From contig JBBILD010000003.1 in NCBI GenBank assembly GCA_037445065.1, forward strand, positions 1 to 64,000: a DNA stretch of 64,000 nt, read 5' to 3'. The notes beneath the pieces were generated by a model that had not been told where the DNA came from, made no database searches, and saw nothing but the letters and a program-made list of their open reading frames with translations. The position numbers were made by a program, and so were the translations under genes. Below are positions 3,701 through 18,624 of this stretch, one piece after another. The stretch's first letter is position 1; every line of letters begins with the position of its first letter. This DNA is from Myxococcales bacterium. Its GTDB lineage: Bacteria > Desulfobacterota > Binatia > HRBIN30.

Positions 3701-5252
3701 CAGTGCCCTGCGTGTTGCCGCCGAATTCGAGCCAACCGTTGGTGGAGATGGCCACCGTCGAGTAATCCACGCCGTCGATACGCACCGCAAAGGGGAGCGT
3801 GGCGGTGGCAACCACGTCATCGCCGGAGAGCGTTTGCAGGCCCGGGATGTTGGTCGCATTGATGTCGTCCGGGCTGTGCGCCATGCCGGCGTGCAACGAC
3901 ATGGCTCCGAGTGCCTTGGGGTGAACGGACCATCCTTCCTCGTTGATCTGATTGTCGTCGAGGATCTTGCCGTTACAGGTGAGGGGGTAAGCCACTGCCG
4001 AACTTCCACCCGCGCCCTGGAAACCGATGGTCGCGCTCTGCCCGTTGGCGGCAAACTGGGCCGTGTAGTAGCGCACAGAAATCAAGCTGGACGTTTCGTG
4101 AATCTGTACTTGAGCGAACACGTCGGCGCCGCCGGAAACCGTTTCTATTTGGAAATCCACGATGAAGGTACGGTTCGGCGACGCCCCCACGGTGCCGTAC
4201 CGAATGGCGCTCGACACCGTCTGCATATCGTCCCAGTACACGGCCAAGAAGGGATTGCTGTGGTTGGCTGCCGGCAGGCAGGTGTTGTTCGGGTCGGAGG
4301 AGCCCGAAGTGTTGCCGCCAAACTCGATCCAGCCGTTGGTGGAAATGGAGAGAACGCTCCAGTTCTGTCCCTCGATATTGACCGAAAAGGGCATGCTGGT
4401 GCTCACCACTGAGTCGTTACCGGTTAGAGTGGCGAATCCACTGATGTCGTCCGGGCTATGGGCATTGAGCGCGCCGAGTGTCACCAAGCCAGGGCGGCCC
4501 ACGTCCACCGACCAACTCTCGTTGTCGGCATTGTCGTCGAGGATCTTGCCGTTGCAGGTAAGCGGCTGGGCTTCGGCACTCGCGCCCCCGGCGGTCTGAA
4601 AGCCGATGGTGGCGCTCTGGCCGTTGGCCAAGTGCCCGGAGTCACGATACTGCACGTTGATCGCGTTCGAGGTCTCGTGCAGCTGGATTTGAAACCGGAT
4701 GTCGTCGGCAGCGTTGTTCTCGACACCCGGGTCCACGTCCACCTCGTAATCCACAATGAATGTGCGGTTCGGTGCCGTGCCCACGGTGCCGTAGCGGATG
4801 TGCGTCCCGAAGGTCTGCAAGTCGTCCCAATAGGCAGCCAGGAAGGGGTTCGTATGCTTCGAGGTCGGTAAACACGTATTGCCCGGATCGGAGTTATTCG
4901 TGCCGCAACCGCTCGTGCAGGTGTTGCCGCCGAACTCGATCCAGCCATTGGTGGAGATGGCAACCGAGTTGTATGCCGTGCCCTGGATCACGAACGAAAA
5001 CGGCAGGGTCACGGCCGCCACGTTGTCGTTGCCGCTGAGGGTAGCAAAGCCACTGATGTCGTCCGGGCTGTGCGCCATGCGCGCGGCAATGGACACGCCG
5101 GCCTCGGCGCGCAGCGCTCCGATGGCGGCAAGGGTCAGGGATGCTAGCAGGATGCGGCGCAGGGAAATGCGGTCTGCGTGCTTGCATCGGAGTTCGCGGG
5201 AACCAATGAACCCCGTTTGCTTCCAGCCACTGCTCTCGATCGTGCTCGTCAT
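720..5252 (-). CDS. Large secreted Cys-rich protein: 3 NIDO-like domains, 17 disintegrin-like repeats, myxococcal Cys-rich motif (1510 aa)
   Basis: ATG at 5252 after a GGAGGGAAGG SD; hydrophobic signal (RRILLASLTLAAIGALRAEA); three AHSPDD...ISTNGW.EFG...FLA.YWDD units; CRxxxGxCDxxExCxGxxxxCPxD repeats; CGNG...EQCDDGN. Confidence 0.85.
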   Translation of the reverse strand: MTSTIESSGWKQTGFIGSRELRCKHADRISLRRILLASLTLAAIGALRAEAGVSIAARMAHSPDDISGFATLSGNDNVAAVTLPFSFVIQGTAYNSVAISTNGWIEFGGNTCTSGCGTNNSDPGNTCLPTSKHTNPFLAAYWDDLQTFGTHIRYGTVGTAPNRTFIVDYEVDVDPGVENNAADDIRFQIQLHETSNAINVQYRDSGHLANGQSATIGFQTAGGASAEAQPLTCNGKILDDNADNESWSVDVGRPGLVTLGALNAHSPDDISGFATLTGNDSVVSTSMPFSVNIEGQNWSVLSISTNGWIEFGGNTSGSSDPNNTCLPAANHSNPFLAVYWDDMQTVSSAIRYGTVGASPNRTFIVDFQIETVSGGADVFAQVQIHETSSLISVRYYTAQFAANGQSATIGFQGAGGSSAVAYPLTCNGKILDDNQINEEGWSVHPKALGAMSLHAGMAHSPDDINATNIPGLQTLSGDDVVATATLPFAVRIDGVDYSTVAISTNGWLEFGGNTQGTADLNNRALPDASHTNPFLAAYWDDLVTTGNHVRYGTVGSTGNRTFVVDYDVQTFTGSYALQFQVQIHERSNAIHVKFRSANNNANGQGATIGFQTAGGSSATAYPLTFNGKVLDDNRPAMGFSAAPLPICGNGIIETKEQCDLAGGNGSSSTCCTAQCQFRANGSVCRASAGECDPAEVCSGTAATCPGDAKQPNGTACSDDGLPCTFDRCDGVNDTCQHPIKPASEVCRPLQGSCDVVDFCDGFNPTCPPDAVLPPTTECRPSAGDCDLAEFCTGTSPVCPVDQKSTAVCRPAGGVCDVAESCDGVSNDCPPNNFQPSSVVCRPAAGECDQAENCTGTAASCPADAKKAAGTVCRAAVDVCDVAETCSGNSDSCPADGFRPNTFVCRSAAGVCDVAETCTGTGPNCPADQLASASTECRAATGACDVAETCTGTSVNCPADGVRAAGFVCRGVAGACDEPESCDGESKACPADEFKGNTVVCRPSAGVCDVEELCTGVGPQCPSDSFAGASVECRAAAGPCDVAEFCAGTGVDCPADQRAPSTQVCRNAVGACDLTEFCDGVSPTCPADQVKAATELCRAASGVCDVAEFCDGVNPQCPADAVAPDTVVCRPAAGVCDADDFCDGASKNCPADQKKLGDVCRAVDGDCDVAEVCDGVSNDCPSDQVLASGTQCRASAGVCDVAEACDGVSAQCPPDQFQPSTVVCRAAADGTCDVAEYCTGTGVACPADVTLNEGDGCAGTNGNTCLNACRSGLCVPEVRPNCCGNGLPDVGEQCDDGNQDLALDDCPSGPGQDCKYTSSPLVRASRSNPLKDKYGCLLEWYVANPNNPVDKFGLPDRDQVCRDNDPTCDSDPTLGVCEFTVALCLNTTDASIPACVQPGTGVSSVLVKPVPLKVASTPIIGPEAVANIAKVSTALTQLLDPQDPGAGYSKGIPLTAPQKNFCSQPLKMKTFVIQTVKDRAKRRLAIRTVAKDGSFPRPKGKRTMLRLSCVP
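1515..3210 (-). repeat. Intragenic tandem repeat, period about 99 bp (33 aa), encoding disintegrin-like modules
   Basis: Recurrent ccacatcgcacaccc-type motif on the + strand; 17 copies counted in the translation. Confidence 0.85.
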
Positions 5253-5495
5253 GCCTTCCCTCCCCGAGCCGTGCCAGGATCTCGAACACCCGACAGCAAG
5301 CGCTAGCTTTACCACAGCACCTGCACCGTTTGTCAACACAGACGCTGGGAGGATCCTATCGCCTCCTCCAGGACGCCTCCCGGCAATCTGCGTGGCTCGG
5401 TGTCAACCGGGAGAAGCGTGCGATAACGGGCGAATGGCCGATAACGCGTCCGGCAGGTTTTGCTGTAATCGCGAGCATGGCCGCTGCGGGGATAG

Positions 5496-5635
5496 GTAGG
5501 GGCGGCCCCTGGGGCCGCCCGTGGTGTTACTGACAGGGTATGTCGGTCGCGCGCGCTCGTACCGGGACGCGCCGCTGGCGGCGACGCGGTCGCAGTGCCA
5601 CGCTGCCACGGCACAGGCACACAGGCCCGTTCCAC
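5496..5635. repeat. REPIN-like element copy
   Basis: GTAG-GGGCGGCC-CCTGG-GGCCGCCC-GTGGTG at 5496-5526; degenerate right arm cacggcacaggcacacaggcccgttccac at 5607-5635. Confidence 0.65.
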
Positions 5636-5877
5636 GGGCCAGCGCTGAACGCGTTGCCCAAGACAGCGCTGAATTGGCACTGTGCGCCTAGGAAGGGAAG
5701 CTCAGCGCGCCCCGACGTCTCGCTGCTGCCCGCAACGCGTTGTCCCACGCGCTGGAGCCTACCATCGAACAACCACGCGATTGCACGCTTCGTGCCGATT
5801 CTGGTTCGCGCAAGCGTCGAGCGCGCCGGCGCCTGCGGGCTTATGGTTAGCGGCGAGGGCTGTCTGCCTGCAGTCCC

Positions 5878-6798
5878 TCAGTGGGGCGCGCCAATGGTAT
5901 TTCCCTCGAGCAGTGGTGGCAGTGACTCCTGGCAGAGGCGCATGAAGGCTTTGACCGCCTGCGTTCGGTGCTGCGCCGACGGCAGAGCGAGTGCCCAACG
6001 GCGGACCAGGCCATTCTTTCCGATTGGTCGCATGCACAGGCGCCCGCTGGCGTGCTCTGCAGTGACTGCCCAGCGCGGCACAATGGCGACACCGAGACCG
6101 GCACACACCATTTCCACCACGGCTTCGAGTTGGTCCATTTCCATGGCGATCCGCGGCAGGACCCCGGCCTCCAGCAACGTACGCTCGATCAAGTGGTAGG
6201 CCTGCGTGCGCCGCTCGTAGACGAGCAGCGGCTCGCCCGCAAAGTCGGCGGCTTGTATACGGCGCCGCTCGCTCCAGGCGTGCCCTGGTGGAGCGATTGC
6301 CACCAGCTCGTCGTTGCCGAGTTCGCTCAGGCTAAGTTTCGGCTCGGCAAGAGGGAGGGTGACCAGTCCTACGTCCAGTTCGCCCGCTAGCAGGCGCTCC
6401 ACCGTGTGCGCGGTGGGCCCGCTGGTGACCCGCAGTTCCACGCGCGGGAAGCGCCGGCAGAACTCGCGCAAGACAGGAGGCAGCAAAAAGTGACATGCCG
6501 CTCCCCCCGCGCCAATGCGCAAGAGTCCGCGCGGCGACGACTCGAGATCGGCGAGCACCCGCTCGGCTTCTTCGATCTTGCGCAGGATTTGCCGCGCGTA
6601 CTGCAGTAACAGGTCTCCCGCCGGAGTGGGCCGCGCGCCGCTACCGGAGCGGGTTAGGATCGGCACTCCGAGCTGCTTCTCGAGCGCACGGATCTGCTGG
6701 CTGATCGCCGACTGGCTGATGCCGAGCCGCCGCCCGGCACGCGTGAAGCTCTGCAAATCCACGATGGTGACGAACGTGCGTAAATGTTTGGCGTCCAT
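5878..6798 (-). CDS. LysR-family transcriptional regulator
   Basis: N-terminal HTH (LRTFVTIVDLQSFTRAGRRLGISQSAISQQIRALE) plus substrate-binding domain; GGAGG SD; the upstream part of the 724-aa ORF is antisense to nirB and is discounted. Confidence 0.92.
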   Translation of the reverse strand: MDAKHLRTFVTIVDLQSFTRAGRRLGISQSAISQQIRALEKQLGVPILTRSGSGARPTPAGDLLLQYARQILRKIEEAERVLADLESSPRGLLRIGAGGAACHFLLPPVLREFCRRFPRVELRVTSGPTAHTVERLLAGELDVGLVTLPLAEPKLSLSELGNDELVAIAPPGHAWSERRRIQAADFAGEPLLVYERRTQAYHLIERTLLEAGVLPRIAMEMDQLEAVVEMVCAGLGVAIVPRWAVTAEHASGRLCMRPIGKNGLVRRWALALPSAQHRTQAVKAFMRLCQESLPPLLEGNTIGAPH

Positions 6799-6984
6799 GG
6801 CAATCGCTTCCTCCGATGTGAGACTTCGTGTTTTCTGATCGCGCTCCGCCCTGACTGACTGCGCACCAAGTGGGCAGTGCGCTGCCTCCTTGCCCGCGCG
6901 CGCAGCACAGGCCGGCCTGGCGAGCTGCCGGCCCGGGAGATGCGCGCATGCGGAGCGAATGCGGGAAAATCGCGCCCACACGCG

Positions 6985-6998
6985 GGCACAACCCTTGC
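6985..6998 (+). promoter_or_regulatory. Putative sigma-54 (-24/-12) promoter of the nitrate-assimilation operon
   Basis: GGCACAACCCTTGC matches the GGCAC-N5-TTGC consensus with exact GG-N10-GC spacing, about 95 bp upstream of nirB. Confidence 0.7.
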
Positions 6999-7092
6999 GA
7001 TTTCCCGCTGCCGATTTCCGGAAAGCAAACGTTCGAGCGGCACGATGAACGAAATAAGCAGCAGCGATGCCAGGGAAAGCGGAGCGAAGAAG

Positions 7093-9618
7093 ATGGTCGA
7101 GAAAAATGGAAACGAGCGAAGAGCAAAGCGACTGTTGGTTGTGGGTGGAGGGATGGCCGCCGCGGCTCTGGTGGAAGAAGTCTGCGCAGTGGCCCCCGAT
7201 CGGTTCTCGATCACCGTGCTCAGCGCCGAGCCGTGGCCGCCGTACAACCGGATTTTGCTCACCGAGGTCCTGGCCGGAAAACACGACGTGGCTTCCACTC
7301 GGTTGCGCCCGCTCGGCTGGTACGAAGAGCACGGCGTGCAGCTGTGGACCGAGACGCGCGCCGTGCGCATCGATCGCCAAGCACGCGTTGTGCACGCGGT
7401 GCGCGCTCGCCGAGACCAAGCCGAGTTCCGTGCGGTTCGTAGCGGCGACGCCAAACCGCTCTCTCTTCGTTACGATGTGCTGGTCTTGGCCACGGGCTCG
7501 CGCCCGTTTGTACCCCCGATCGAAGGGACCGCGCTGAGTGGCGTGTACTGCTTCCGCACGCTCGACGACTGTGCCGCGATCGGCCGCGCGGCAGCGCGTG
7601 CGCAGCGCGCGGTTGTCGTGGGCGGAGGGCTCCTCGGACTCGAAGCAGCGCGGGGCCTGCTCGAGCACAGGGTGCGGGTGACGGTCGTAGAAGCCGCTCC
7701 GCAGCTCATGCCGGCGCAGCTCGACCGCGAGGGCGGGGCGCTGCTGAAGCAGACACTCGAAGCCATGGGCATCGAAGTGCGTTGCGCTGCCCAGGTGCGC
7801 AAGGTGACTGGGGAAGAGAGAGTGGAGACGGTGGAACTTTCCACTGGTGAGATATTGCCCTGTTCCCTGGTCGTGCTTGCAGCCGGAATCCGGCCCGATG
7901 TCGAACTGGCGCGCGAAGCGGGGCTTGCTGTCCAGCGCGGCATCGTGTGCGACGATCAGATGCGCACCAGCGATCCGCATATTTTTGCATTGGGTGAGTG
8001 CGCCGAGCATCGCGGTGTGGTGTACGGCTTGGTGGACCCGATCCGCGAGCAAGCGCGCGTGCTCGCCCAGGTCCTGTCAGGGGCTGGCCCGCAGGCCGCG
8101 TACTGGGGCTCGCGTCTGGCGGTGCGGCTGAAAGTGATGGGAGTAGATTTGGTGTGCCTGGGCGACCCGCGCGGCGAGGGCCCCGGCGACGAGGTCGTGG
8201 TGTACCGCGAGCCTGCCCGCGGCGTGTACAAGAAGCTCGTTGTCCGCGATGGGAAGCTGGAAGCCGGCATCCTCCTCGGCGAAGCGGATACTGCCGGGGT
8301 TCTCACCCAGCTCTACTTGGCGCGCGCGCCCCTTCCCGAGCGGCGCGCGGAAGTGTTGTTCGGTACCGCGAGCGGGGCGCCGATCCTTTCGATCTTCGAC
8401 CTCCCGGACCACGCCCAGATCTGCAACTGCAACGGAGTCTGCAAAGGCGAGATTCGCGAGGCGATCGTGCTCGGCAAGTGCCGCTCGCTGTCGCGCTTGA
8501 GTGCTGTGACCCGGGCCGGCAGCGGCTGCGGTAGTTGTAAATCCTTGCTCAAGCAGTTCCTCGAAGTCTACGCTGGCGACGAAGTCGGGGAAGACGAGGC
8601 CGAGCACCACTATGTCCCTGGCGTCCCGCTCGCCAAGCCCGCGCTGGTGCGGGAGATCAAAGCCCGCCGCCTGAAAAGCGTGAGCGCCGTTTTTGCTGCC
8701 CTCGCTGGCGGGCGCGAGGACCCGGCGAGCAAGCCGGGCTTGGCCTCGTTACTGCGCACCATTTGGGGGCGAGAGTACGACGACGAGCGCGACGCTCGCT
8801 TCATCAACGATCGCGTGCACGCCAACATTCAGCGCGACGGTACCTTCAGTGTCGTGCCGCGCATGTACGCGGGCGTAACTTCCCCCGCGGAGCTGCGCCG
8901 CATCGCCGAGGTGGCCGAGAAGTACCAGGTGCGCATGGTCAAACTCACAGGTGGCCAGCGGATCGATTTGCTCGGGGTGCGCAAGGAGGATTTACCACTC
9001 ATTTGGCGCGACTTGGGCATGCCGAGTGGGCACGCCTACACCAAGGCGTTTCGTACCTGCAAAAGCTGCGTGGGGACGGACTTTTGTCGCTTCGGCCTCG
9101 GCGACTCGATCGCTCTCGCGCAGAAAATCGAGCGCCGCTTCCAAGGACTGGAAGCCCCTCACAAGCTCAAGCTCGCCACCGCAGGGTGCCCGCGCAATTG
9201 CTCCGAGGCGTACGTCAAAGACGTGGGTGTGGTGGCGGTCGAGGGCGGCCGCTGGGAGATTTACGTCGGTGGCGCGGCGGGCAGCCACGTGCGCAAAGGC
9301 GACCTGCTCGCCACCGTGCGCTCGCACGAAGAGGTGCTGCAGCTCGTCGGCCGCTTTCTCCAGTACTACCGCGAGCATGCCAAGTATGCCGAGCGCACCT
9401 ACGGCTTTGTCGAGCGCGTTGGCATCGAGAAACTGCGCGCCGTGGTGGTGGACGATCGCGAAGGACTCGCTGCCGCGCTTGACGCCGAGATCGAGGCAGC
9501 GGTGGCGAGTTATCGCGACCCGTGGGCCGAGGAAGCCGCCGCGCCCGTGTTTCCCGGACAGTTTGCCGGTGTCGAACGCCTGGAGGCTGCTGGTGAGCAG
9601 CCGCTCGCTGGCAGGTGA
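7093..9618 (+). CDS. nirB: NAD(P)H-dependent siroheme nitrite reductase, large subunit
   Basis: FAD/NAD motifs (VVGGGMAA, VVGGGLLGLE), BFD CNC...CGSC, siroheme/4Fe-4S CKSCVGTDFC...GCPRNC; alternative start at 7045. Confidence 0.93.
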   Translation: MVEKNGNERRAKRLLVVGGGMAAAALVEEVCAVAPDRFSITVLSAEPWPPYNRILLTEVLAGKHDVASTRLRPLGWYEEHGVQLWTETRAVRIDRQARVVHAVRARRDQAEFRAVRSGDAKPLSLRYDVLVLATGSRPFVPPIEGTALSGVYCFRTLDDCAAIGRAAARAQRAVVVGGGLLGLEAARGLLEHRVRVTVVEAAPQLMPAQLDREGGALLKQTLEAMGIEVRCAAQVRKVTGEERVETVELSTGEILPCSLVVLAAGIRPDVELAREAGLAVQRGIVCDDQMRTSDPHIFALGECAEHRGVVYGLVDPIREQARVLAQVLSGAGPQAAYWGSRLAVRLKVMGVDLVCLGDPRGEGPGDEVVVYREPARGVYKKLVVRDGKLEAGILLGEADTAGVLTQLYLARAPLPERRAEVLFGTASGAPILSIFDLPDHAQICNCNGVCKGEIREAIVLGKCRSLSRLSAVTRAGSGCGSCKSLLKQFLEVYAGDEVGEDEAEHHYVPGVPLAKPALVREIKARRLKSVSAVFAALAGGREDPASKPGLASLLRTIWGREYDDERDARFINDRVHANIQRDGTFSVVPRMYAGVTSPAELRRIAEVAEKYQVRMVKLTGGQRIDLLGVRKEDLPLIWRDLGMPSGHAYTKAFRTCKSCVGTDFCRFGLGDSIALAQKIERRFQGLEAPHKLKLATAGCPRNCSEAYVKDVGVVAVEGGRWEIYVGGAAGSHVRKGDLLATVRSHEEVLQLVGRFLQYYREHAKYAERTYGFVERVGIEKLRAVVVDDREGLAAALDAEIEAAVASYRDPWAEEAAAPVFPGQFAGVERLEAAGEQPLAGR

Positions 9619-9642
9619 GAACAACTCGACGGGGAGGTGAGC

Positions 9643-10029
9643 ATGGAGTGTCTGTTGGCGACACAACCGCGTCTCGGCGTAACTGCGCAGCAGGCCGAGC
9701 GTGGGCCGCGTGAGCTGCGCGTGGATTTGGAGCAGATTCCGCTGGGGCAGGGGCGTGCCTTTGTGGCAGGAGGGATCGAGGTGGCGGTCTTCCGCCAGCG
9801 TGACGGGCAAGTGTTCGCCCTGCACGCGCGCTGCCCGCACCGAGGCGGCCCGCTTGCCGATGGCCTCCTTGGAGCGGGCAAGGTGATTTGCCCGCTGCAC
9901 GGTTGGGTGATCGACCTCGCTAGCGGCGAGTGCTGGTACAGTCACGACAAACTACCCACGTATCCGGTGCGCGTGGAAAGGGGAACCCTGATCGTAACCC
10001 TCGAGCCCCAGCTAGGGGAGGCACCATGA
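9643..10029 (+). CDS. nirD: Nitrite reductase small subunit (Rieske-type)
   Basis: CPHRGGPL...CPLHGW; GGAGG SD; directly follows nirB. Confidence 0.88.
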   Translation: MECLLATQPRLGVTAQQAERGPRELRVDLEQIPLGQGRAFVAGGIEVAVFRQRDGQVFALHARCPHRGGPLADGLLGAGKVICPLHGWVIDLASGECWYSHDKLPTYPVRVERGTLIVTLEPQLGEAP

Positions 10030-11054
10030 AGGCAACCGCGTTCCGCGACGCCTCGCTTGCCACGCTCGTGCTGCTCGCGGCCATTTACGCTGGCTCCGGG
10101 CAAGGGGAGCACTTCGATTCGGCCTTGCGCGGTTACGCTTTCGGGGTGGTCACCGTGTTCTTCGTGACTGCCTACCGGGCCGCCATGCTGTGGCGCCACC
10201 CAGCGGCGGCGCTGTTTGCACGGGAACTCGGCCGCGCCCTTTGCCAGCCGAGATGGTGGTGGGAAAGCTTGAGCGAGTTCGGCCGCAGTTTGGTGGCGCA
10301 ACGTTTCCTCGCAGCCAGGGGGCGCCTGCGCTGGCTTGCGCACCTCAGCCTCTCCTGGGGAACACTGCTCGCCTTCCTGGTGACGGTCCCTTTGGTATTT
10401 GGCTGGATACATTTCGAAGTTGCAGGCGAACGCCTCTACCGAGCGCACGCATTCGGCGTCGGCTTGCTGAGTTTCGACGTGGACAGCCTGCTTGGCTGGC
10501 TTGTCTTTCACGTTCTCCACGTGTGCTCCGTTTTGGTGTTGCTCGGGTGCACGTACTTCGTGCTCGTCCGCTTGCGCGCCCGCGGCGAGTGGCATGGCCA
10601 GCGTAGCTTTCACCTGGCTCCTTTGCTGGCGCTCGCTTGGCTGGCGGCCACCGGACTCGCCCTGCCGTGGGCGGCTCAGCAGGGTGACGCAAGCTTGGTG
10701 CGCTTGGCGCAAGTGCTCCACCAGGTGGCCGTACTGGGTCTCCTTGCGAGTTTGCCGTTTGGCAAGCTCGCGCACCTCCTCTTGCGGCCGTTGCATGCAG
10801 GCGCCGTGATGCTGCGGCGGACAAGGGCATCCGTGAGGTGTCGCTCGTGCGAGGCTCCGCTCGCGCCAGGCGAACAAGTGGTCCGGGTGCAGGAAATCCT
10901 GTCGCGGCAACGAGTGGGGGCGCCAGCGCCGGTTTGGCTGTGTACGGCCTGCCGGCGCCGGGCTGTGGCGATGACCCACAGCAAGCTCGTCGGCCGGGGC
11001 TTTTTACCGACCGTGGTGCAGGGCCGGCACGAGGCACAACGAAAGGTAGCGTGA
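10026..11054 (+). CDS. Polytopic membrane protein, NarI/cytochrome-b-like, with C-terminal CxxC...CxxC
   Basis: About 6-7 TM segments; His in TM segments (WLAHLSL, FHVLHV, VLHQV, PFGKLAH); CRSC...CTAC; ATGA overlap with nirD. Confidence 0.7.
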
Positions 11055-11056
11055 CG

Positions 11057-13258
11057 ATGGCGCGCATTCCGATTTCCGAGGCGGAGTGTATCGAGCGGTA
11101 TGGGCCGCACCCGCAGTACGAGCCTCCCGGCGGATTTGCCGGGCGTGGGGTGCCCGACCGCAAAGTGCTCACGCATTGCTGCTTTTGCGGCCAGCAGTGC
11201 GGGGTGAAGCTACTGGTGCGCAACGAGCGGGTGATCGGCGTCGAGCCGTGGGAGGAATTCCCGTTCAACCGCGGCAACCTCTGTCCAAAGGGCGTCAAGC
11301 GCTACTTGCAGAACCACCATCCCGACCGCTTGCGCACCCCCTTGCTGCGCACGGACTCTGGATTCGCCCCGATTGGATGGGACGAGGCACTCGATCTGGT
11401 GGTGGAGCGTTTCCAGCACCTGCAACGCAACTACGGGCGAGACAGCGTGGCGGTGCTCTCTGGGGCCTCGCTGACCAACGAGAAAGCCTACCTGATGGGC
11501 AAGTTTGCGCGGGTGGCGCTCGGAACCCGGCACATTGATTACAACGGGCGCCTGTGCATGGTGGCAGCGGGAGCGGCCAACCTTCGTGCCTTCGGCATCG
11601 ACCGCGCCGCGAACCCATGGGCCGACATCGCCAGCACGGATCTTGTCCTGGTGACAGGGGCAAACGTGTCGGAGTGCAGCCCGATCACCATTGACTACAT
11701 CTGGCGTGCGCGCGACCGCGGCGCCAAGCTGATCGTCATTGACCCCCGCCTCACACCCGTGGCGCGCACCGCCGACCTGTACTTGCCGGTGCGCCCAGGG
11801 CGCGACGTGGCGCTGATGAATGCCATCCTCCACGCCGTCATCCGGCTCGGCGGCGTGGATCAGGAGTTCGTCGAACGGCACACCAGCGGGTTCGAGAACG
11901 TGCGCGCCGCTGTGGAGCGGTATTCGCCTGAGTCGGTGGAGCGCCTGGTGGGGGTGCCGGCTGCACGCATTTGGCAGGCAGCGCGCATGTGGGTGCAAGC
12001 ACCGCGCACCATGCTGCTGCACGCGCGCGGCATCGAGCATCACACCAAGGGTGTGGACAACGTGCTTTCCTGCATCAATCTCGTGCTCGCCACCGGTAAG
12101 ATCGGCCGGCCTGGCTGCGGCTACGCCACCATTACCGGCCAGGGCAACGGGCAGGGCGCGCGCGAGCACGGCCAGCGCTGCAATCAGCTTCCTGGGGCGC
12201 GCGACATCGAAAACCCAGAACACCGCGCCTGGATCGCTTCGGTGTGGGGCGTACCGGAAAACGAGCTGCCGGGTAAGGGCGGGACACTTCCAGAAATTCT
12301 GGAACTCGCCCACCGCGGCGAGGTCAAGGGCCTACTTTCGATTTGCCTCAACCCAGCGGTCTCCCTACCCGACACGGCCTTTACCCGCGCCGCCTTGGAG
12401 CGTCTGCGCTTTTACGTAGCGATTGACTTCTTTCTCTCGGAAACAGCTCGCCACGCCGATCTCGTTCTCCCCGGCTCGCTGCACGAAGAAGACGAAGGGA
12501 CCGTCACGAGTGCCGAGGGCAGAGTCATCCGCATCCGGCAGGCAGTGTCCCCGCCTCCTGGTGCGCGGCGCGACTGGGAGATCATTTGCGAGCTGGCCCG
12601 CCGCCTCGGCAAAGGCCGTTACTTTTCTTTTTCCTCTCCGCGCGAGATCTTCGATGAGTTGCGCCTGGCATCGCGCGGCGGCAAGGCCGATTACTTTGGC
12701 ATCACCTACGAAAAGATCGAGCAGAACTACGGCGTGTTCTGGCCTTGCCCGTCGCTCGATCATCCGGGTACGCCGCGCTTGTTCGATGGCGGCCGCTTTG
12801 CACATGCGGATGGGCGGGCCCGCTTCCACGCCGTCGAGTACCGGCCGCCGGCAGAGGACGTGGACGCCGACTACCCGCTCTTTCTCACCACCGGCCGCGT
12901 GGTCTCGCAGTTCCTTTCCGGGAACCAGACCCGTCGCATCGGGCCACTCCTCGACCAGTACCCCAGCCCGCGCGTGGAAATGCACCCGCACTTGGCAACG
13001 CAGCTCGGTATTGCCGACGGCGATCCTGTGCGCGTGGTGAGCCGCCGCGGGGCACTCGAGCTGCCCGCCACCGTGGCGCGCACGATTCGACCCGACACGG
13101 TGTTCATCCCGTATCATTGGCCGGGCGAACAAGCAGCCAATCAGCTGACCATTCGTGCGTACGATCCGGTGGCCGGAATTCCAGAATTCAAAGTGTGCGC
13201 GGTGCGAGTGGAGAAAATCGCGCCGGCTTCGTCCGCCAGGGGGCGGGGGTTGCGATGA
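11057..13258 (+). CDS. nasA: Assimilatory-type nitrate reductase catalytic subunit (Mo-bisPGD, NasA/NarB family)
   Basis: [10 protein letters not shown]...LCPKG [4Fe-4S] motif; NGRLCM Mo-ligand motif; C-terminal molydop-binding domain (PEFKVCAV); no Tat signal. Confidence 0.85.
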
Positions 13259-13866
13259 GCCGCGAGCGCCGCACGTTGTTTTTGGATCCGCAGCGCTGCA
13301 TTGGTTGCCGCGCTTGCGTGCAAGCGTGTAGCGAGTGCCCCGGTCACGCCGGCGAGGCGATGATCCATCTCGACGAGCTAGCGCGCGGCGACAGCGTGCA
13401 AACCGCTCCGGCGGTGTGCATGCACTGCGAGGAGCCGGCGTGCGCCGCGGTTTGCCCGGTGGACGCCATCCACAAAGGTCGCGATGGTGTGGTGCACACG
13501 GCTCAGCGCGAGCGCTGTATTGGCTGCGGGAACTGTGCGCTGGCCTGCCCGTTCGGCGTGCCAAAGGTGGATGCACGCCGCGAACTCATGGTGAAGTGCG
13601 ACCTTTGCTACGAGCGCACGTCGCTCGGGCTGGCACCAATGTGCGCCACGGTGTGTCCATCCGGAGCCTTGTTTTACGGCACCGAGGAAGAGGTGGTTGA
13701 CCAGCGCGCGCTGCATCCACTCAACCGCTTCACGTTTGGCACCGACCTCGTTCGCACCTCGGTGCGGTATTTGGTGCCAGCGTGGCACCGGACCATTCCA
13801 GTTTCCAATCAGGCGCAGAGAGACCGCTCGATTGCAGAGTTGTGCATGGAGGAGGCGATCGTATGA
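13255..13866 (+). CDS. DmsB/NrfC-like 4x[4Fe-4S] electron-transfer subunit
   Basis: [42 protein letters not shown]...CATVCP; ATGA overlap with the upstream gene. Confidence 0.88.
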
Positions 13867-14342
13867 GGAACGAAGGAACCGAGGTTCGAGCTGAGGCGAC
13901 CCCGCAACGGCTCCCGAGTGCGGCTTGCCCGCAAGTCGGCCGCCGTGCCTTTCTGGGGACTGCAGCGGCGGTGGCGGTTGGGGCCCTGGCCGGCGAATGG
14001 AGCACCACGGGTGACGGGGAAGCGAGCGCAGAGAGTTGGGGCCCGCTATTGGCGAGCGCCGAGCTGGCCGCCGGCGAGGGGCGGCACGTTCGCGGGGAGG
14101 GCAGCGCAAGACTGGTGTTGGTGGTTCGCTTGCTCGACGGCGCCTTGCGCGCCTTCGACGCGCGCTGCCAGCATCTCGGCTGCCCCGTGCTGTGGTCGCG
14201 CCAGCGCCAGCGCATCGAGTGCCCGTGCCACCAAGCCGTGTTCGATGCTCAGGACGGTGGGGTGGTAACGGGACCGCCGGCGCGCGGCCTCGAGCCGCTC
14301 GAAGTGTACGAGCGCGGCGGCACGGTGTTCGTACGGGTGTGA
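13863..14342 (+). CDS. Rieske [2Fe-2S] protein with twin-arginine N-terminus
   Basis: GRRAFLG followed by a hydrophobic helix; CQHLGC...CPCH; GPP motif. Confidence 0.87.
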   Translation: MRNEGTEVRAEATPQRLPSAACPQVGRRAFLGTAAAVAVGALAGEWSTTGDGEASAESWGPLLASAELAAGEGRHVRGEGSARLVLVVRLLDGALRAFDARCQHLGCPVLWSRQRQRIECPCHQAVFDAQDGGVVTGPPARGLEPLEVYERGGTVFVRV

Positions 14343-14372
14343 GGGAGCTGTTCCAGTGAAGGAGGGTGGTGC

Positions 14373-15590
14373 GTGACTGTAGAGCGGGGGTTTTGGCGGG
14401 AGTTTTGGCATGCGGGCCACGGGCCCACTCTGCTCGCTGCGTTTTTGTACTTCGACGTGAGTTTCCTCTTGTGGATGCTTGTCGGCTCGCTCGCCGTGTT
14501 TCTCAGCGCGGACCTCGAGCTGACCGCCTCGCAAAAGGGATTTCTGGTTGCGTTGCCGCTGTTGTCTGGCGCGTGCTTGCGTTTGCTGGCGGGTACCCTG
14601 GCGGACCGCATCGGGGCACGCCGCACGGCGGCGCTCGGCATGTCCCTGACTGCGGTGGCTCTGTTGTGCGGTGGGTTGGGGGTGCAAGGCTTTGTCTCGG
14701 CGCTGTGCACCGCGGCCCTGCTCGGAGTGGCGGGCGCAAGCTTTGCCGTGGCGCTGCCGCTCGCCAGCCGATCGTATCCGGCCCGCTTCCAAGGAATCGC
14801 CATGGGCATCGCGGGTGCGGGCAACTCCGGTACCGTGTTGGCCGCGTTTTTCGCGCCGCGCTTGGCGGAGTGGGTCGGGTGGAGGGGAGTGTTTTTGTGG
14901 TGCCTGATCCCCCTCCTCATTACCTTGGTCCTGTTTCTCCTCCTCGCACGCGAGCCGGCGTCCTTTGCACGCAACGCCCGGCAGCCGATCGCGCGCGAGC
15001 CCGACCTGTGGTGGCTATGCGCGTTTTACATGCTGACCTTCGGCGGCTTTGTCGGCTGGAGTAGCTTCTTGCCCGTGTTGTTCTCGGATCTTTACGGGGT
15101 ACCGGCAGTGACTGCAGGCACGTGGACGGCGGCTTGCGTGCTCGCTGGCAGCGCGTTGCGGCCGCTCGGTGGGTGGCTGGCCGATCGCTGGGGTGGAGTC
15201 GGCGTGCTGAGTAGCGTGTACGCCCTGGCTGGCGGGGTCGCCTCGTTGATCGGCTTGGTTCCCTCGCCGGCGGCTGCAGTGCTGCTCATGGTGGCCATGC
15301 TGGGTAGCCTCGGGGCAGGCAACGGCGCGGTGTTCCAGCTCGTGGGCCAGCGCTTTCCTGGCGCAATCGGCAAGGCCACCGGGATCGTCGGTGCGGCCGG
15401 GGGCGTGGGGGGATTCTTGTTGCCCTCGATCTTGGGAGTGGTGCGTGAGATTTCCGGCAGCTATGTGCCGGGCTTTGGCGCGTTTGCGAGCGCCGCGGTC
15501 GCCTTGCTGGTAGCCCTCCGCTGGCTCGAGCGGCGCTGGCGGTGGACGCTGGCGGTCCGCCGACAAGTCGAGCCGGGCGTCGCGCACTGA
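14373..15590 (+). CDS. narK: NarK/NRT2-family nitrate/nitrite MFS transporter
   Basis: About 12 TM; GIAGAGNSG and GAGNGAVFQ...GIVGAAGGVGGF nitrate-signature motifs. Confidence 0.9.
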   Translation: MTVERGFWREFWHAGHGPTLLAAFLYFDVSFLLWMLVGSLAVFLSADLELTASQKGFLVALPLLSGACLRLLAGTLADRIGARRTAALGMSLTAVALLCGGLGVQGFVSALCTAALLGVAGASFAVALPLASRSYPARFQGIAMGIAGAGNSGTVLAAFFAPRLAEWVGWRGVFLWCLIPLLITLVLFLLLAREPASFARNARQPIAREPDLWWLCAFYMLTFGGFVGWSSFLPVLFSDLYGVPAVTAGTWTAACVLAGSALRPLGGWLADRWGGVGVLSSVYALAGGVASLIGLVPSPAAAVLLMVAMLGSLGAGNGAVFQLVGQRFPGAIGKATGIVGAAGGVGGFLLPSILGVVREISGSYVPGFGAFASAAVALLVALRWLERRWRWTLAVRRQVEPGVAH

Positions 15591-15619
15591 CGGTCCGGCG
15601 AGGGGAACAAAGCGCGCGC

Positions 15620-15647
15620 TTGACACTGCGCTGCCCCTCGGCATACT
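15620..15647 (+). promoter_or_regulatory. Putative sigma-70 promoter for the cohesin-like lipoprotein, implying a near-leaderless mRNA
   Basis: TTGACA-N16-CATACT ending 9 bp before the ATG at 15657; no SD. Confidence 0.55.
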
Positions 15648-15656
15648 CGTGGCCCC

Positions 15657-16226
15657 ATGCAGCGTGGCGCCGTCTCTTGTTGGAGCAGTTTGGCATTGTT
15701 CCTTGCGCTCGCTTGCCTGGCCTCTTGCCAGCGGCAAAAGGAAGCCACCGCCCCGGCACCCGTGCCTCCTGTGGCCCAGCCTCAGCCGAGCGAAGGCATG
15801 GTGGTAGCCGTGCAAAGTGCCAAGGCGAGCGCCGACGGGGCGACCAAGGTTTGCGTGCGCTTGGAGCGGAATTCCGGCAAGGTCTCCGGCATGCAGATGG
15901 ACTTGGGTTGGGATCCGAGCTGCCTCACAATGGAACAGACTGGCAACGGCGAGCCAGCGTGCACGATGAACCCGGAGGCGCAGCGCAGCTTGTTCCGTGC
16001 TGCCAAGCGCGAGCGAGGAATCCGAGTGCTGTTTCTGAACTTGAACGATACGAACCCGATGCCTGCCTCGGTGGGGGAACTGTTTTGCTGCCAATTCCGG
16101 ACGGCGGGGCCTGGCCGCCAGTGTGAGGTGAGCATCAGCAACGCGATCGCCTCCGATCCGACCGGAACTCGCCTTCCCCTGACCACCCAGGCTGGTACCG
16201 TCCAGGTGGAAGGCTCCGCCGGCTGA
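15657..16226 (+). CDS. Lipoprotein with a cohesin-like beta-sandwich domain
   Basis: Lipobox LAS-C, Pro-rich linker, then V.VRL...VSGMQMDLGWDP...GELFCCQF...ISNAIASD..G..L......GTVQV pattern. Confidence 0.65.
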   Translation: MQRGAVSCWSSLALFLALACLASCQRQKEATAPAPVPPVAQPQPSEGMVVAVQSAKASADGATKVCVRLERNSGKVSGMQMDLGWDPSCLTMEQTGNGEPACTMNPEAQRSLFRAAKRERGIRVLFLNLNDTNPMPASVGELFCCQFRTAGPGRQCEVSISNAIASDPTGTRLPLTTQAGTVQVEGSAG

Positions 16227-16401
16227 AGCGAGCTTGGGTTCTCCCGCGCGCGGCGGCGCTTGCGTTCGGACCTCGAACTCGCTCGCTCTCCAACCACTCA
16301 GCAAGCGCCGGTAACAAGTGAGAGCGCAATTTGTGCCGCTCGGGTGGTTTGCGGCTCGGCCGCTTGACTTGCCTGCGGCGCACGGGCTAGCGGGCGCGGC
16401 C

Positions 16402-18624
16402 ATGAGTGGAGCTGTGGGTCGTGGGTCGAAAGTGTGGGTTGTGCTGGTTTTAACAGCGTTCACGGCAGTGGTGTGTGCTGGGTGTGGGGACAACGAGATC
16501 ACGGCAGCACTGACCCCGACGGGTACGCCAGCGGCAACGGCCACACTGTCGCGCAGCCCGACGCAGGGTGTCACACCCTCACCCCAGATCACGCTCCCTT
16601 CGGAAACACCGCGCACCCCGACTTCCACCGCGACGCTGTCGGCCACACCGGTGGCAAGCGCAACCGCGACCTTCACTGCAACGCCCACCTTCACGGCCAC
16701 CGCCACGAGCACGGCTACGCTTCCGGCCACCCCCACCGCGACCCAAGGGCCCGCCACCGCCCTTTTCTCGCTCGACGCCGACAACCCGGACAATCCTTTC
16801 CCTAGCGATCGGCTGCGCGACGAGGCGGGACGCGTGCGGGTGCCCGCGCCGTATTTGCGCATCGCGTTGCCCGATACGGCGGAGTTTGCCGCAGCTCGCG
16901 CCTTTGGGGAGGCGATCGCTTCGCAGCTTCAAGTGCTCACGGGCTTCTCGACTTTTGCACCCATTCGCGTGCGCTTCGATCGCCCGGTGGTGGTGGATGC
17001 GGGGAGCTTCCCGCGTGGCATCTGGCTGTTGCGGGCAGACGAACTCGACGACCCTCCCCACTGGATCCAAGCGTCGTACTACGACCCGGACCGCGCCCTC
17101 GAGATTTATCCGGTGGTGCCGCTGCGCCCCAAGACCCCGTACGCACTGGTAGTCACGGACGACCTGGTGGATTCTCGGGGGTACCACGTACAGCCCTCCG
17201 AGGACTTCGTTCGCCTGCGTGAGGGAATCGGACTGGATGCTGCAGCTCAGGCGTGGCGAGATCGCTTGCTGCCCATTTGGGACTACGTGGAACGGCGCTT
17301 GGAGATTCGGCGCAGTGAAATCGTGCTCACGGAACTGTTCACGACCCAGCCGACGTGGGACGACTTGGTCGCCATTCGCCAACGGCTCGACGCGGGCGCG
17401 CTGCCGGAGGCACTGCCAGTGCTCGATCGGCCGCTGGGCGACTTGCGTACCGGCATCTTCCCAGAGGGTACGCCGGAGTTCGAAAGCCTGGTGGGTGCGG
17501 CGAACACAGCCAACGTGGCCGCTGCCGCCGTCGGTTTCTTCGACTCCTTTGACTTTCGTGATCGCCCCAACGGGGCCTTCGACCCCAGCAAGATCGCGGG
17601 CGAGGCGACGCCGAGCCCGAACAAGGTGGACTTTTACATGGCGCTGCCCAAAGCGACGCCGCCACCGAACGGGTATCCGGTGGCGGTCTTTGGGCACGGA
17701 CTGGGCGGTTCCGGGCGCGACGTTTACCAAATCGCGCGCCTCAATCTGCACATACCGATGGTGGGCATCGCCATTTCTGCCCTTCAGCACGGACGGCGCG
17801 GGTCGGTGACTAACTTTTTCAACCTCACGAGTATCACCACGACGCGCGAGTTTTTCCGGCAAACGATCGCGGACTTTATGCAACTCGTGCGCATGATCCG
17901 CCGTGCCCACGCCGCACGGATCGCACCGTTCGATACTGTGGATCCCGAGCGCATCGTATACATCGGTGGCTCGCTCGGCGGCATCATGGGGACGATGTTC
18001 ATGGCGGTGGAGAACCAGGTGCTCGTGGGCATGCTGAGCGTGCCAGGGGGCGGATTGCCGAACATCCTGGCCTCGCGACAAATCGGCCAGTTGCTCGAGC
18101 CCTTCCTCGGTGTGCTGATTGGGTTGCAACCGAGTAGCCCCTTCTTCGAGCCCTTCTTGCACCGCTTCCGGCAGGTCGCACAGTGGGCCCTCGATCCGGC
18201 CGACCCGATCAACTACGCGCCCTACGTGGTGGTGCCGGGAGCGCAACTGCCAGGCGTGCCGCCAAAGCGCATCCTCATGCACGAAGGAATCGTGGACGAT
18301 GTGGTGCCCAATCGCACCACGGAAGATCTCGCTCTGGCCATGCGCTTACCCGACCTCAACGCCACGCGCGGCTGCCTCCGTGCAAGCGGCTGCAGCGGAA
18401 TCTGGCGCTTTGTGATGACCGATTACGGCCGCGACGAGCTGAGCGGGCACACGGTGACCGTTGATGTGGCAGAGGCAACGCGCCAAGCCTTCGCGTTTTT
18501 GCTGAGCGATGGCACGTGGATCCCGGATGCGAGTCCCGGAGCGGAAATTGACCTCGACGCCCCGCCCCTGCCGCTCCAGTGGTTGGTCACGAGCGAGGTG
18601 GGAGCCGAACTGGGAATCCAATAA
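16402..18624 (+). CDS. Secreted/lipoprotein alpha/beta hydrolase (extracellular lipase-like) with Thr/Pro-rich linker
   Basis: Lipobox-like CAG-C; TPT/TAT linker; PFPSD motif; FGHGLGG oxyanion and GGSLGG nucleophile motifs; DDVVPN; GH. Confidence 0.75.
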   Translation: MSGAVGRGSKVWVVLVLTAFTAVVCAGCGDNEITAALTPTGTPAATATLSRSPTQGVTPSPQITLPSETPRTPTSTATLSATPVASATATFTATPTFTATATSTATLPATPTATQGPATALFSLDADNPDNPFPSDRLRDEAGRVRVPAPYLRIALPDTAEFAAARAFGEAIASQLQVLTGFSTFAPIRVRFDRPVVVDAGSFPRGIWLLRADELDDPPHWIQASYYDPDRALEIYPVVPLRPKTPYALVVTDDLVDSRGYHVQPSEDFVRLREGIGLDAAAQAWRDRLLPIWDYVERRLEIRRSEIVLTELFTTQPTWDDLVAIRQRLDAGALPEALPVLDRPLGDLRTGIFPEGTPEFESLVGAANTANVAAAAVGFFDSFDFRDRPNGAFDPSKIAGEATPSPNKVDFYMALPKATPPPNGYPVAVFGHGLGGSGRDVYQIARLNLHIPMVGIAISALQHGRRGSVTNFFNLTSITTTREFFRQTIADFMQLVRMIRRAHAARIAPFDTVDPERIVYIGGSLGGIMGTMFMAVENQVLVGMLSVPGGGLPNILASRQIGQLLEPFLGVLIGLQPSSPFFEPFLHRFRQVAQWALDPADPINYAPYVVVPGAQLPGVPPKRILMHEGIVDDVVPNRTTEDLALAMRLPDLNATRGCLRASGCSGIWRFVMTDYGRDELSGHTVTVDVAEATRQAFAFLLSDGTWIPDASPGAEIDLDAPPLPLQWLVTSEVGAELGIQ

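Follow-up and report, generated by a model that had tools for sequence, protein, structure and literature searches.

Nitrogen-cycle surveys count narG and napA as markers of dissimilatory nitrate reduction and nasA, nasC and narB as markers of assimilation. Among the enzymes behind these markers, NarGHI (Escherichia coli type, PDB entry 1Q16) combines a transmembrane dihaem b anchor, a four-cluster Fe–S subunit and a cytoplasmic catalytic subunit carrying molybdenum bis-pyranopterin guanine dinucleotide (Mo-bisPGD), with the transporter NarK alongside. Enzymes of the NasC type (Bacillus NasC/NasB; Paracoccus NasC–NasG–NasB) are cytoplasmic, and their partners are an NADH diaphorase or a cytoplasmic Rieske protein resembling NirD. 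Two further groups bear on the present case, namely the Rieske proteins of bc1, b6f and the arsenite oxidase AioAB, and the EtfD, HdrE, DsrM, QmoC and TmcC anchors of the NarI superfamily. Here, we analyse four genes in a stretch of 64,000 nucleotides from a Myxococcales bacterium (GenBank assembly GCA_037445065.1, contig JBBILD010000003.1, positions 1–64,000; hereafter the window), which encode a membrane anchor, a Mo-bisPGD enzyme, a four-cluster ferredoxin and a Rieske protein. The module presents a genuine and conserved set of subunits for a nitrate reductase, undescribed in the literature searched; it is a variant on a familiar enzyme type, and its function and mechanism in this form are predicted below. 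We give a probability of about 60% to the reading in which the four products form a single membrane-bound nitrate reductase with its active site facing the cytoplasm, fed by quinol and wired like NarGHI. The initial annotation had proposed a hybrid, quinol-fed membrane complex, and this continues to be the best reading because of the NarI-fold anchor, the conserved haem and Fe–S ligands and the conservation of the module as a whole.

The four genes lie between nirBD and narK, and the tight coupling ascribed to them can be read directly from the sequence. Seven open reading frames (ORFs) run head to tail on the plus strand in the order nirB, nirD, anchor, Mo subunit, ferredoxin, Rieske protein and narK (Table 1). 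The TGA stop codon of nirD (10027–10029) overlaps the anchor ATG at 10026 as ATGA, a 2 bp gap (11055–11056) separates the anchor stop at 11054 from the Mo-subunit start at 11057, and ATGA overlaps recur at 13255–13258 (Mo subunit and ferredoxin) and 13863–13866 (ferredoxin and Rieske protein). There is no room between nirD and narK for an extra ORF such as narJ, no search for which was made elsewhere in the genome; the module operon thus differs from that of NarGHI. A promoter and terminator scan of 5300–16500 returned nothing inside the operon that exceeded shuffled expectation. The gene products were also as initially described: a polytopic His-bearing anchor, a Mo enzyme lacking a twin-arginine translocation (Tat) signal and a BFD domain, a subunit for four [4Fe-4S] clusters and a Rieske protein with a twin-arginine motif.

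A pattern scan of a one-genome-per-species collection found at least 600 anchor-family stretches, from which 80 loci were kept for analysis and their genes called by tblastn and ORF calling; the residue counts given below cover the window plus all called locus genes. All four genes are present in 65 of the 80 loci, 62 of them in the order anchor–Mo–ferredoxin–Rieske, and the set is therefore a conserved module and not a chance neighbourhood. A permuted order, ferredoxin–Rieske–(DUF6755)–NarK–anchor–Mo, occurs in three loci of the Armatimonadota type (L018, L025 and L060). Fewer than four genes were called in the other 15 loci, several of which are short; L030 and L038 have several kilobases downstream without an Fe–S or Rieske match. 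The hosts include Acidobacteriota (among them the isolate Pyrinomonas methylaliphatogenes K22), Actinomycetota (two Streptomyces, Iamia and Acidimicrobiia), Myxococcota, Planctomycetota, Armatimonadota, Obscuribacterales, Gemmatimonadota and others, and the module is also carried by four Deinococcus plasmids and one Brevibacillus laterosporus replicon. A word-indexed protein search recovered only 11 anchor relatives; an exhaustive anchor profile search yielded 1,798 clusters (50% identity) at E ≤ 0.001, including 1,060 at E ≤ 1e-10 and 362 at E ≤ 1e-30.

The anchor gives weak NCBIfam matches to the membrane anchors QmoC, TcuB and TmcC. Its AlphaFold2 model, built from 84 sequences (predicted local distance difference test, pLDDT, 88.8; predicted template-modelling score, pTM, 0.80), shows six long helices; a small sheet of three strands is inserted between helices 3 and 4, and the C-terminal domain consists of a hairpin and a helix. 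In a wide search with VIA-align the closest structures were Mycobacterium smegmatis EtfD (9ojn_A; Z 10.8, root-mean-square deviation 3.8, 205 residues aligned) and, second, E. coli NarI (Z 8.7, deviation 5.3, 175 aligned), with Z values of a size that is not decisive alone for helical bundles. Profile comparison by hhalign with a NarI alignment built from five carrier genomes that also have NarGHI gave a probability of 86% (E 4.9e-6) and aligned H232 and H250 with the two invariant helix-V His residues of NarI within a common PF(G/S)(K/R)LxH motif. The His residues on which the proposal of a haem-bearing anchor depended proved to be conserved: H106, H232 and H250 are invariant (77/77 sequences), and H162 occurs in 74/77. 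The four cysteines of the C-terminal domain (C272, C275, C306 and C309) are kept in all 77. For the anchor of Deinococcus sp. NW-56 (L081:8887–9999, WP_104992190.1), NarI gamma is the sole family signal (E 1.2e-4, 22.2 bits versus 22.9). Judged by model and profiles together, the anchor most probably has a NarI fold and is not a bc-type cytochrome b. It departs from NarI by two additional helices at the N-terminus, by its Cys4 tail and by one His placed on a different helix, and from the EtfD and QmoC type, despite the structural likeness to EtfD, in scoring far below the cut-offs (QmoC, 26 bits against 300) and in having a molybdoenzyme, not a CCG-domain or Hdr-type protein, as its cytoplasmic partner.

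Modelled alone, the Cys4 domain (anchor residues 258–342, window 10797–11051; CxxC…CxxC) reached a pLDDT of 75. Its best structural match is residues 113–165 of E. coli HycF (Z 4.5, deviation 1.8, 49 aligned), and a profile match falls on the same stretch (E 0.012); these matches are too weak for the fold or a metal to be named from HycF, and we rejected that assignment. Names in the public annotation by the Prokaryotic Genome Annotation Pipeline are generic or wrong: in Deinococcus sp. NW-56 the enzyme is called a 'molybdopterin oxidoreductase family protein' and the anchor an 'MFS transporter' (major facilitator superfamily). The latter identity was likewise rejected, as there is no MFS Pfam match and NarI is the only family signal; the name is likely a propagated misannotation, perhaps from the NarK–anchor fusions described below.

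The catalytic subunit has only the Pfam domains Molybdop_Fe4S4, Molybdopterin and Molydop_binding, and neither a BFD domain nor a twin-arginine N-terminus was seen by Pfam or in the translation. The N-terminal [4Fe-4S] cysteines C41, C44, C48 and C76 are present in 70/71 sequences, and the Mo-ligand Cys167 followed by Met168 in 71/71. A Tat-like motif upstream of the first Fe–S Cys was found in one of 70 Mo subunits, where it lies upstream of the chosen start, and the subunit is predicted to be cytoplasmic. The active-site stretch of the module proteins reads RLCM(V)SA; RLCM is shared by six nirBD-linked Nas references, three NapA references have RHCM, and five formate dehydrogenase (FDH) references have Cys (or Sec) followed by His or Gln at the same site, as described for FDHs in PMC8808070. 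Neither Cys/Sec-His nor Cys-Gln occurs in any of the 71 module sequences. The subunit is also not NarG, since it has 733 amino acids against 1235 positions in the narG model and scores 58.1 bits with TIGR01580, below the cut-off of 1084.15. The Mo ligand of NarG is an Asp, where the module has Cys. The AioA large-subunit model TIGR02693 likewise stays below its cut-off (158.2 bits, 359.05 needed), and the Cys ligand and four-Cys first cluster set the subunit apart from AioAB.

Between anchor and catalytic subunit, the ferredoxin would provide the electron path. It matches Fer4_11 (76.9 bits, cut-off 26.2) and, weakly, the HybA, DmsB and FDH-beta models, while no specific NCBIfam equivalog model reaches its cut-off. 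Unlike NarH it has 203 amino acids, and it scores 39.4 bits with TIGR01660 (cut-off 524.05). Its 16 Cys residues, arranged in four motifs for four [4Fe-4S] clusters as in DmsB, FdnH and HybA, are invariant in 68/68 sequences, and therefore no [3Fe-4S] cluster is expected. No signal peptide was found, and no C-terminal hydrophobic stretch is evident in the translation. Beyond the cluster Cys, E27, C28 and H31 are invariant in 68/68, just after the first cluster motif.

The fourth product, the Rieske protein, shows in the window a GRRAFLG motif, a short Ala-rich hydrophobic stretch and CQHLGC and CPCH boxes; the twin arginines and both cluster boxes (CxHxxC and CxCH, six box residues) are kept in 67/67 sequences. 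The best solved relatives are AioB (8r3a_B, E 1.2e-20), the Thermus Rieske protein and b6f PetC; the curated bc1 and b6f models were not reached (48.7 against 275 and 44.7 against 154). By its motifs the protein is of the bc/arsenite-oxidase type, with an N-terminal hydrophobic segment, CTHLGC/CPCH-type boxes and two extra Cys, a pair typical of bc and Aio Rieske proteins. TatC is encoded in the genome of the window, and the Rieske protein is probably inserted by Tat and located on the outer face.

NarI-family anchors dock cytoplasmic partners. Because of this, and because the Mo and Fe–S subunits have no export signal, a wiring like that of NarGHI is favoured. From the model helices and the charge distribution, both termini of the anchor would lie in the cytoplasm; H106 would then be near the cytoplasmic end of helix 3, H250 just after the Pro-kinked helix 6, H162 near the outer end of helix 4 and H232 in helix 6, and the sheet containing the invariant W127, F130 and Y138 would be on the outside. 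Quinol would be oxidized at the outer face of the anchor, at the site of the Tat-inserted Rieske centre, and electrons would cross the membrane via two b haems, the outer held by H162 and H232 and the inner by H106 and H250. They would then enter the four-cluster ferredoxin, docked at the cytoplasmic face near the Cys4 domain, and the Mo-bisPGD subunit would reduce nitrate imported by NarK. With quinol oxidized outside and protons consumed inside, energy would be conserved by a redox loop as in NarGHI, built from non-Nar parts. In the window genome, nitrite would pass to the co-transcribed NirBD and be reduced to ammonium. The Rieske centre may be part of the quinol site, or may accept or deliver electrons at the outer face.

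Several observations weigh against this reading. The window anchor has no Pfam match at E ≤ 0.01, the NarI model PF02665 included, and Foldseek found nothing for its model in the PDB at E ≤ 0.001 (only GPCR-like entries, with EtfD at rank 12). The NarI alignment covers only the C-terminal half of the anchor; the presumed haem ligand H162 sits on another helix than in NarI, and the helix-II His pair of NarI is unmatched, H106 and H162 being on two different helices. The Rieske centre, the most conserved oddity of the module, has no necessary role in a NarGHI-type loop. NADH-derived electrons delivered via NirB are conceivable, by comparison with Paracoccus NasBGC as summarized in PMC3475470. 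Haem binding, quinol oxidation and nitrate reduction by the module are, moreover, predictions. As for assembly into one complex, a structure prediction of the anchor with the ferredoxin, two haems and the Rieske protein, the latter being the scored chain, scored 0.46 with three chains against 0.00 for the best control, and runs agreed in at least 69% of contacts with a partner pLDDT of at least 67. It is a weak pass that gives no interface. Of the solved complexes, 116 of 157 attained the mark, as did 2 of 215 mismatches; among results of 0.60 or under are only 18 of the 157 solved complexes, together with both mismatches that passed.

The remaining points of this kind concern the catalytic subunit. 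Its best NCBIfam model, NasC (NF047855), scores 826.4 bits, below the cut-off of 1100, and the second best, Fdh-alpha (TIGR01591), 618.7 bits, below 666.25. The best solved relatives are FDHs (7qv7, 509.9 bits, against 378 bits for NapA). A quick maximum-likelihood tree of 41 rows was built, 27 of them from the module (the proteins of the window and of Deinococcus, with 25 of the 70 Mo proteins called in the loci). The module proteins form a clade of their own (support by the Shimodaira–Hasegawa-like approximate likelihood-ratio test, SH-aLRT, 100), which a branch with SH-aLRT 99 groups with the FDHs, Nas and Nap being on the opposite side. The Mo subunit is thus placed nearer to cytoplasmic FDHs than to proteobacterial NasA and NapA in a tree that comprises neither Bacillus NasC nor cyanobacterial NarB and does not cover the placement relative to those two. 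The assignment of the enzyme as 'Nas/NarB-type' agrees with the Cys-Met motif shared with Nas and Nap but is not supported by the position of its clade in this phylogeny. The model scores, the solved relatives and the tree would suit an FDH or an enzyme acting on another oxyanion. The invariant Cys-Met, where FDHs have Cys/Sec-His or Cys-Gln, speaks for nitrate, as do the transporters: 58 of the 65 full loci have an anion transporter no more than 1.5 kb away (NarK-like in 34, TehA/SLAC1-like in 19 and HPP in five), and in three proteins (P0019, P0054 and P0064), for which the NarK model is the best match, NarK is fused to the anchor. With nirBD adjoining in the window, and nitric oxide (NO)-stress and nitrite-reduction genes neighbouring the module elsewhere, a substrate other than nitrate seems highly improbable to us and, on balance, the catalytic subunit is most likely a nitrate reductase. 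P0144, P0121 and P0141 also belong to the natural fusions; P0121 extends from MFS through the anchor into the first Mo domain and P0141 is an anchor–Mo protein, and in both of these gene calling may simply have read through overlapping genes.

The outward-facing Rieske centre admits other readings of the electron path. The initial annotation had likened Rieske protein plus cytochrome b to the core of bc-type quinol oxidation; this part has to be given up, since the anchor is of the NarI type and no bc-type cytochrome b is found among the module genes. A Qo-type, bifurcating oxidation of quinol, in which one electron passes to the Rieske centre and an outside acceptor and the other through the b haems to nitrate, would fit the resemblance to a bc Qo site that may be seen in a Rieske protein beside a dihaem b protein at the outer face. 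The fold of the anchor speaks against this, and the module encodes no acceptor for the Rieske electron. Nitrate is itself a high-potential acceptor, and nothing needs driving uphill. We regard such a split as very improbable. Alternatively, electrons from a bc complex, cytochrome c or another periplasmic donor might enter through the Rieske centre and cross to nitrate, which would then be a terminal acceptor downstream of the bc complex with a higher energy yield. The type and orientation of the Rieske protein, its invariance in a module whose NarI-type loop needs none and the dependence of Streptomyces coelicolor Nar1 on the bcc-aa3 supercomplex, with which it is reported to co-purify (PMC7931247), would all suit this route. 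A high-potential Rieske centre would, however, have to reduce the b haems uphill, against the membrane potential, and no cytochrome c, cupredoxin or bc-type cytochrome b was found among the Pfam-scanned ORFs around 14 loci. In known systems the Rieske centre is reduced by quinol or by a Mo enzyme and in turn reduces c-type carriers, and not the other way round. Entry from the high-potential chain is unlikely in our estimation. Taken more broadly, the proposition that the outward Rieske centre is a working electron entry or Qo-type split point of a cytoplasm-facing nitrate reductase is doubtful but deserves notice for its consequences. Nitrate reduction would be coupled to the membrane potential unlike in any characterized nitrate reductase, with donors at the level of the bc complex, periplasmic carriers or split quinol oxidation, and a widespread class of genes at present labelled 'assimilatory NasC' would mark energy-conserving nitrate respiration that surveys based on narG and napA miss.

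The Rieske protein could also act in export, carrying the Mo subunit and ferredoxin across the membrane on its Tat signal, as AioB does for AioA, to form a periplasmic enzyme. It bears the only Tat motif of the module, AioB is its best solved relative, and in the window clade its short, Ala-rich hydrophobic stretch is like a cleavable signal. The conserved Cys4 domain of the anchor, however, follows the last helix on the side modelled as cytoplasmic, nitrate importers adjoin or are fused to the module, and the AioA model falls well short of its cut-off. NarI-family anchors, as noted, dock partners on the cytoplasmic side, and a four-cluster ferredoxin would take the site that AioB occupies next to the Fe–S cluster of the Mo subunit. 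Co-export thus appears extremely unlikely, and a cytoplasm-facing complex stays the preferred arrangement.

Whether such a nitrate reductase is assimilatory, as initially annotated, has different answers for the window and for the family. The genome of the window (97.7% complete) contains no NarG match above the cut-off (best 99.7 bits, 1084 needed), no NapA match at E ≤ 1e-200 and no NirK or NrfA match at the thresholds used, and because of the NarG and NapA results the module is its only candidate nitrate reductase by these searches, with NirBD as the obvious sink for nitrite. Nitrate is most likely converted to ammonium in the cytoplasm there, the module serving assimilation or ammonification. 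'Assimilatory' therefore suits the window genome but not the whole family: only one of the 65 full loci has NirB within 1.5 kb, and two have it anywhere in the locus. A NIR_SIR domain (E ≤ 1e-15) was found in 32 of 51 carrier genomes and not found in 19; NrfA is present in 13/51, NirK above the cut-off in 4/51 and NarG above the cut-off in 9/50 (41 without), and NapA in 0/51. The carrier genomes are mostly metagenome-assembled genomes (MAGs), in which absences are weak evidence. Contig coordinates place NrfA beside the module in two genomes: in one the gene for this pentahaem nitrite reductase (G022:C6:20064–21251) lies just beyond the NarK genes of locus L032 and in the other (G034:C257:32423–33619) about 1.8 kb upstream of the anchor gene of L056, both on the module strand, and their position points to nitrate-to-ammonium respiration in these two lineages. 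Pfam searches of the ORFs of 14 loci further revealed qNor and an Rrf2 (NsrR-like) regulator (L041), NnrS and HPP (L028), hemerythrin/ScdA (L016 and L006), a globin–reductase fusion (flavohaemoglobin; L054) and a Crp-family regulator (L006). Even with the reservation about MAGs, the genes around the module point to dissimilatory nitrate reduction and NO stress no less than to assimilation, and in other lineages the module probably serves dissimilatory nitrate reduction.

These data also bear on a soluble, Nas-type system, in which the Mo subunit and ferredoxin would be fed by NirB and NADH or by a cytoplasmic ferredoxin and the membrane and Rieske proteins would serve sensing, nitrite export or assembly. 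There are resemblances to the NasC type: NasC is the top NCBIfam model, the enzyme is cytoplasmic with an N-terminal four-Cys cluster and a Cys-Met site, nirBD adjoins in the window, and, as in Gram-positive NasC, there is no C-terminal BFD domain. Heylen and Keltjens (2012; PMC3475470) reported nasC of Bacillus bataviensis linked to iron–sulfur and Rieske genes and proposed an alternative assimilatory system; the available part of that paper mentions no membrane subunit. In the module, however, the NasC score stays below the equivalog cut-off, the clade is separate from the proteobacterial Nas proteins, and the catalytic subunit goes with an anchor in the membrane, a four-cluster ferredoxin and a bc-type Rieske protein that is exported; neither an NADH diaphorase nor a NirD-like cytoplasmic Rieske protein was found as a partner. 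That four genes stay together across phyla, 62/65 in one order with invariant redox ligands, and that NirB is rarely near and the NIR_SIR domain not found in 19 of the 51 carrier genomes, many of them MAGs, makes a soluble enzyme of this kind very unlikely against the membrane-bound, quinol-fed reading.

No description of a four- or five-gene module with a membrane anchor was found in the full-text literature, a search that did not cover most subscription journals and supplements, and the module is not described in the available parts of PMC10100899, PMC3475470, PMC11388526 and PMC8808070. Were the enzyme membrane-bound and quinol-linked, it would represent an unrecognized and possibly energy-conserving route of nitrate reduction in many soil and freshwater lineages, among Acidobacteriota, Actinomycetota, Myxococcota, Planctomycetota, Armatimonadota and Deinococcus. 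For bioenergetics, the pairing of a Rieske centre with an anchor of the NarI fold would, if the reading holds, be an unexplored combination, and it is directly testable because cultured carriers exist, among them Deinococcus sp. NW-56, D. wulumuqiensis, Brevibacillus laterosporus, P. methylaliphatogenes K22 and Streptomyces sp. A5-4.

In most lineages a fifth gene, which NarGHI lacks as it lacks the Rieske subunit, accompanies the other four. In Deinococcus sp. NW-56 a 'DUF6755 family protein' follows the Rieske protein (Pfam E 3.6e-11); the product is a small membrane protein of two helices (for example L081:13594–13935, L016:12663–12974 and L054:12529–12894). It lies directly after the Rieske gene in 43 loci, and a six-frame search with a hidden Markov model (HMM) made from such ORFs added 22 more. 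The same HMM did not find it in the window, L001 or L004 (locus L002 being incomplete), and Pfam gave no match at E ≤ 1 in the whole genome of the window. The name 'DUF6755' occurred in no paper of the literature searched, with the coverage stated above. In most loci the Rieske N-terminus has a conserved WRxDFP…RRxFxKF segment together with some 22 hydrophobic residues that resemble a membrane anchor. The proteins of the window, L001 and L004 have a short Ala/Gly-rich stretch instead, which looks like a cleavable Tat signal. The DUF6755 protein and the Rieske membrane anchor thus seem to have been lost together in the window clade, and this joint loss suggests that the two interact. The window carries a reduced four-gene form of the module, attached to nirBD.

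Table 1. Genes of the operon, with window coordinates.
Feature	Position	Strand	Evidence
nirB, NADH-nitrite reductase large subunit	6877..9618	+	TIGR02374 807.8 bits (cut-off 578.35)
nirD, small Rieske-like nitrite reductase subunit	9637..10029	+	TIGR02378 64.2 bits (below 74.65 cut-off); Pfam Rieske, Rieske_2
Membrane anchor, 342 aa	10026..11054	+	Six predicted transmembrane helices, NarI-fold core (predicted), C-terminal Cys4 domain
Catalytic Mo-bisPGD subunit, 733 aa	11057..13258	+	Pfam/NCBIfam matches; signal peptide absent
Four-cluster ferredoxin subunit, 203 aa	13255..13866	+	Fer4_11 76.9 bits; 16 Cys in four motifs
Rieske [2Fe-2S] protein, 159 aa	13863..14342	+	Pfam Rieske 52.7 bits; GRRAFLG, CQHLGC, CPCH
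narK-family nitrate/nitrite MFS transporter	14373..15590	+	TIGR00886 236.9 bits (subfamily cut-off 311.7); MFS_1 126.5 bits

The nirB product contains the domains Pyr_redox_2, BFD, NIR_SIR_ferr and NIR_SIR. The coordinates given for nirB are those of the longest ORF, and the true start is probably a later ATG because the match to the NirB model begins only at residue 86. Upstream, on the minus strand (720–5339), the window carries a 1539-residue ORF with seven matched stretches of the Disintegrin domain (PF00200, E 5.4e-90), and in L001 a protein of RCC1 repeats and Disintegrin (L001:2314–4806) lies upstream of its nirB; by these Pfam matches the ORF has a domain unusual for bacteria, in a synteny kept between the window and L001.

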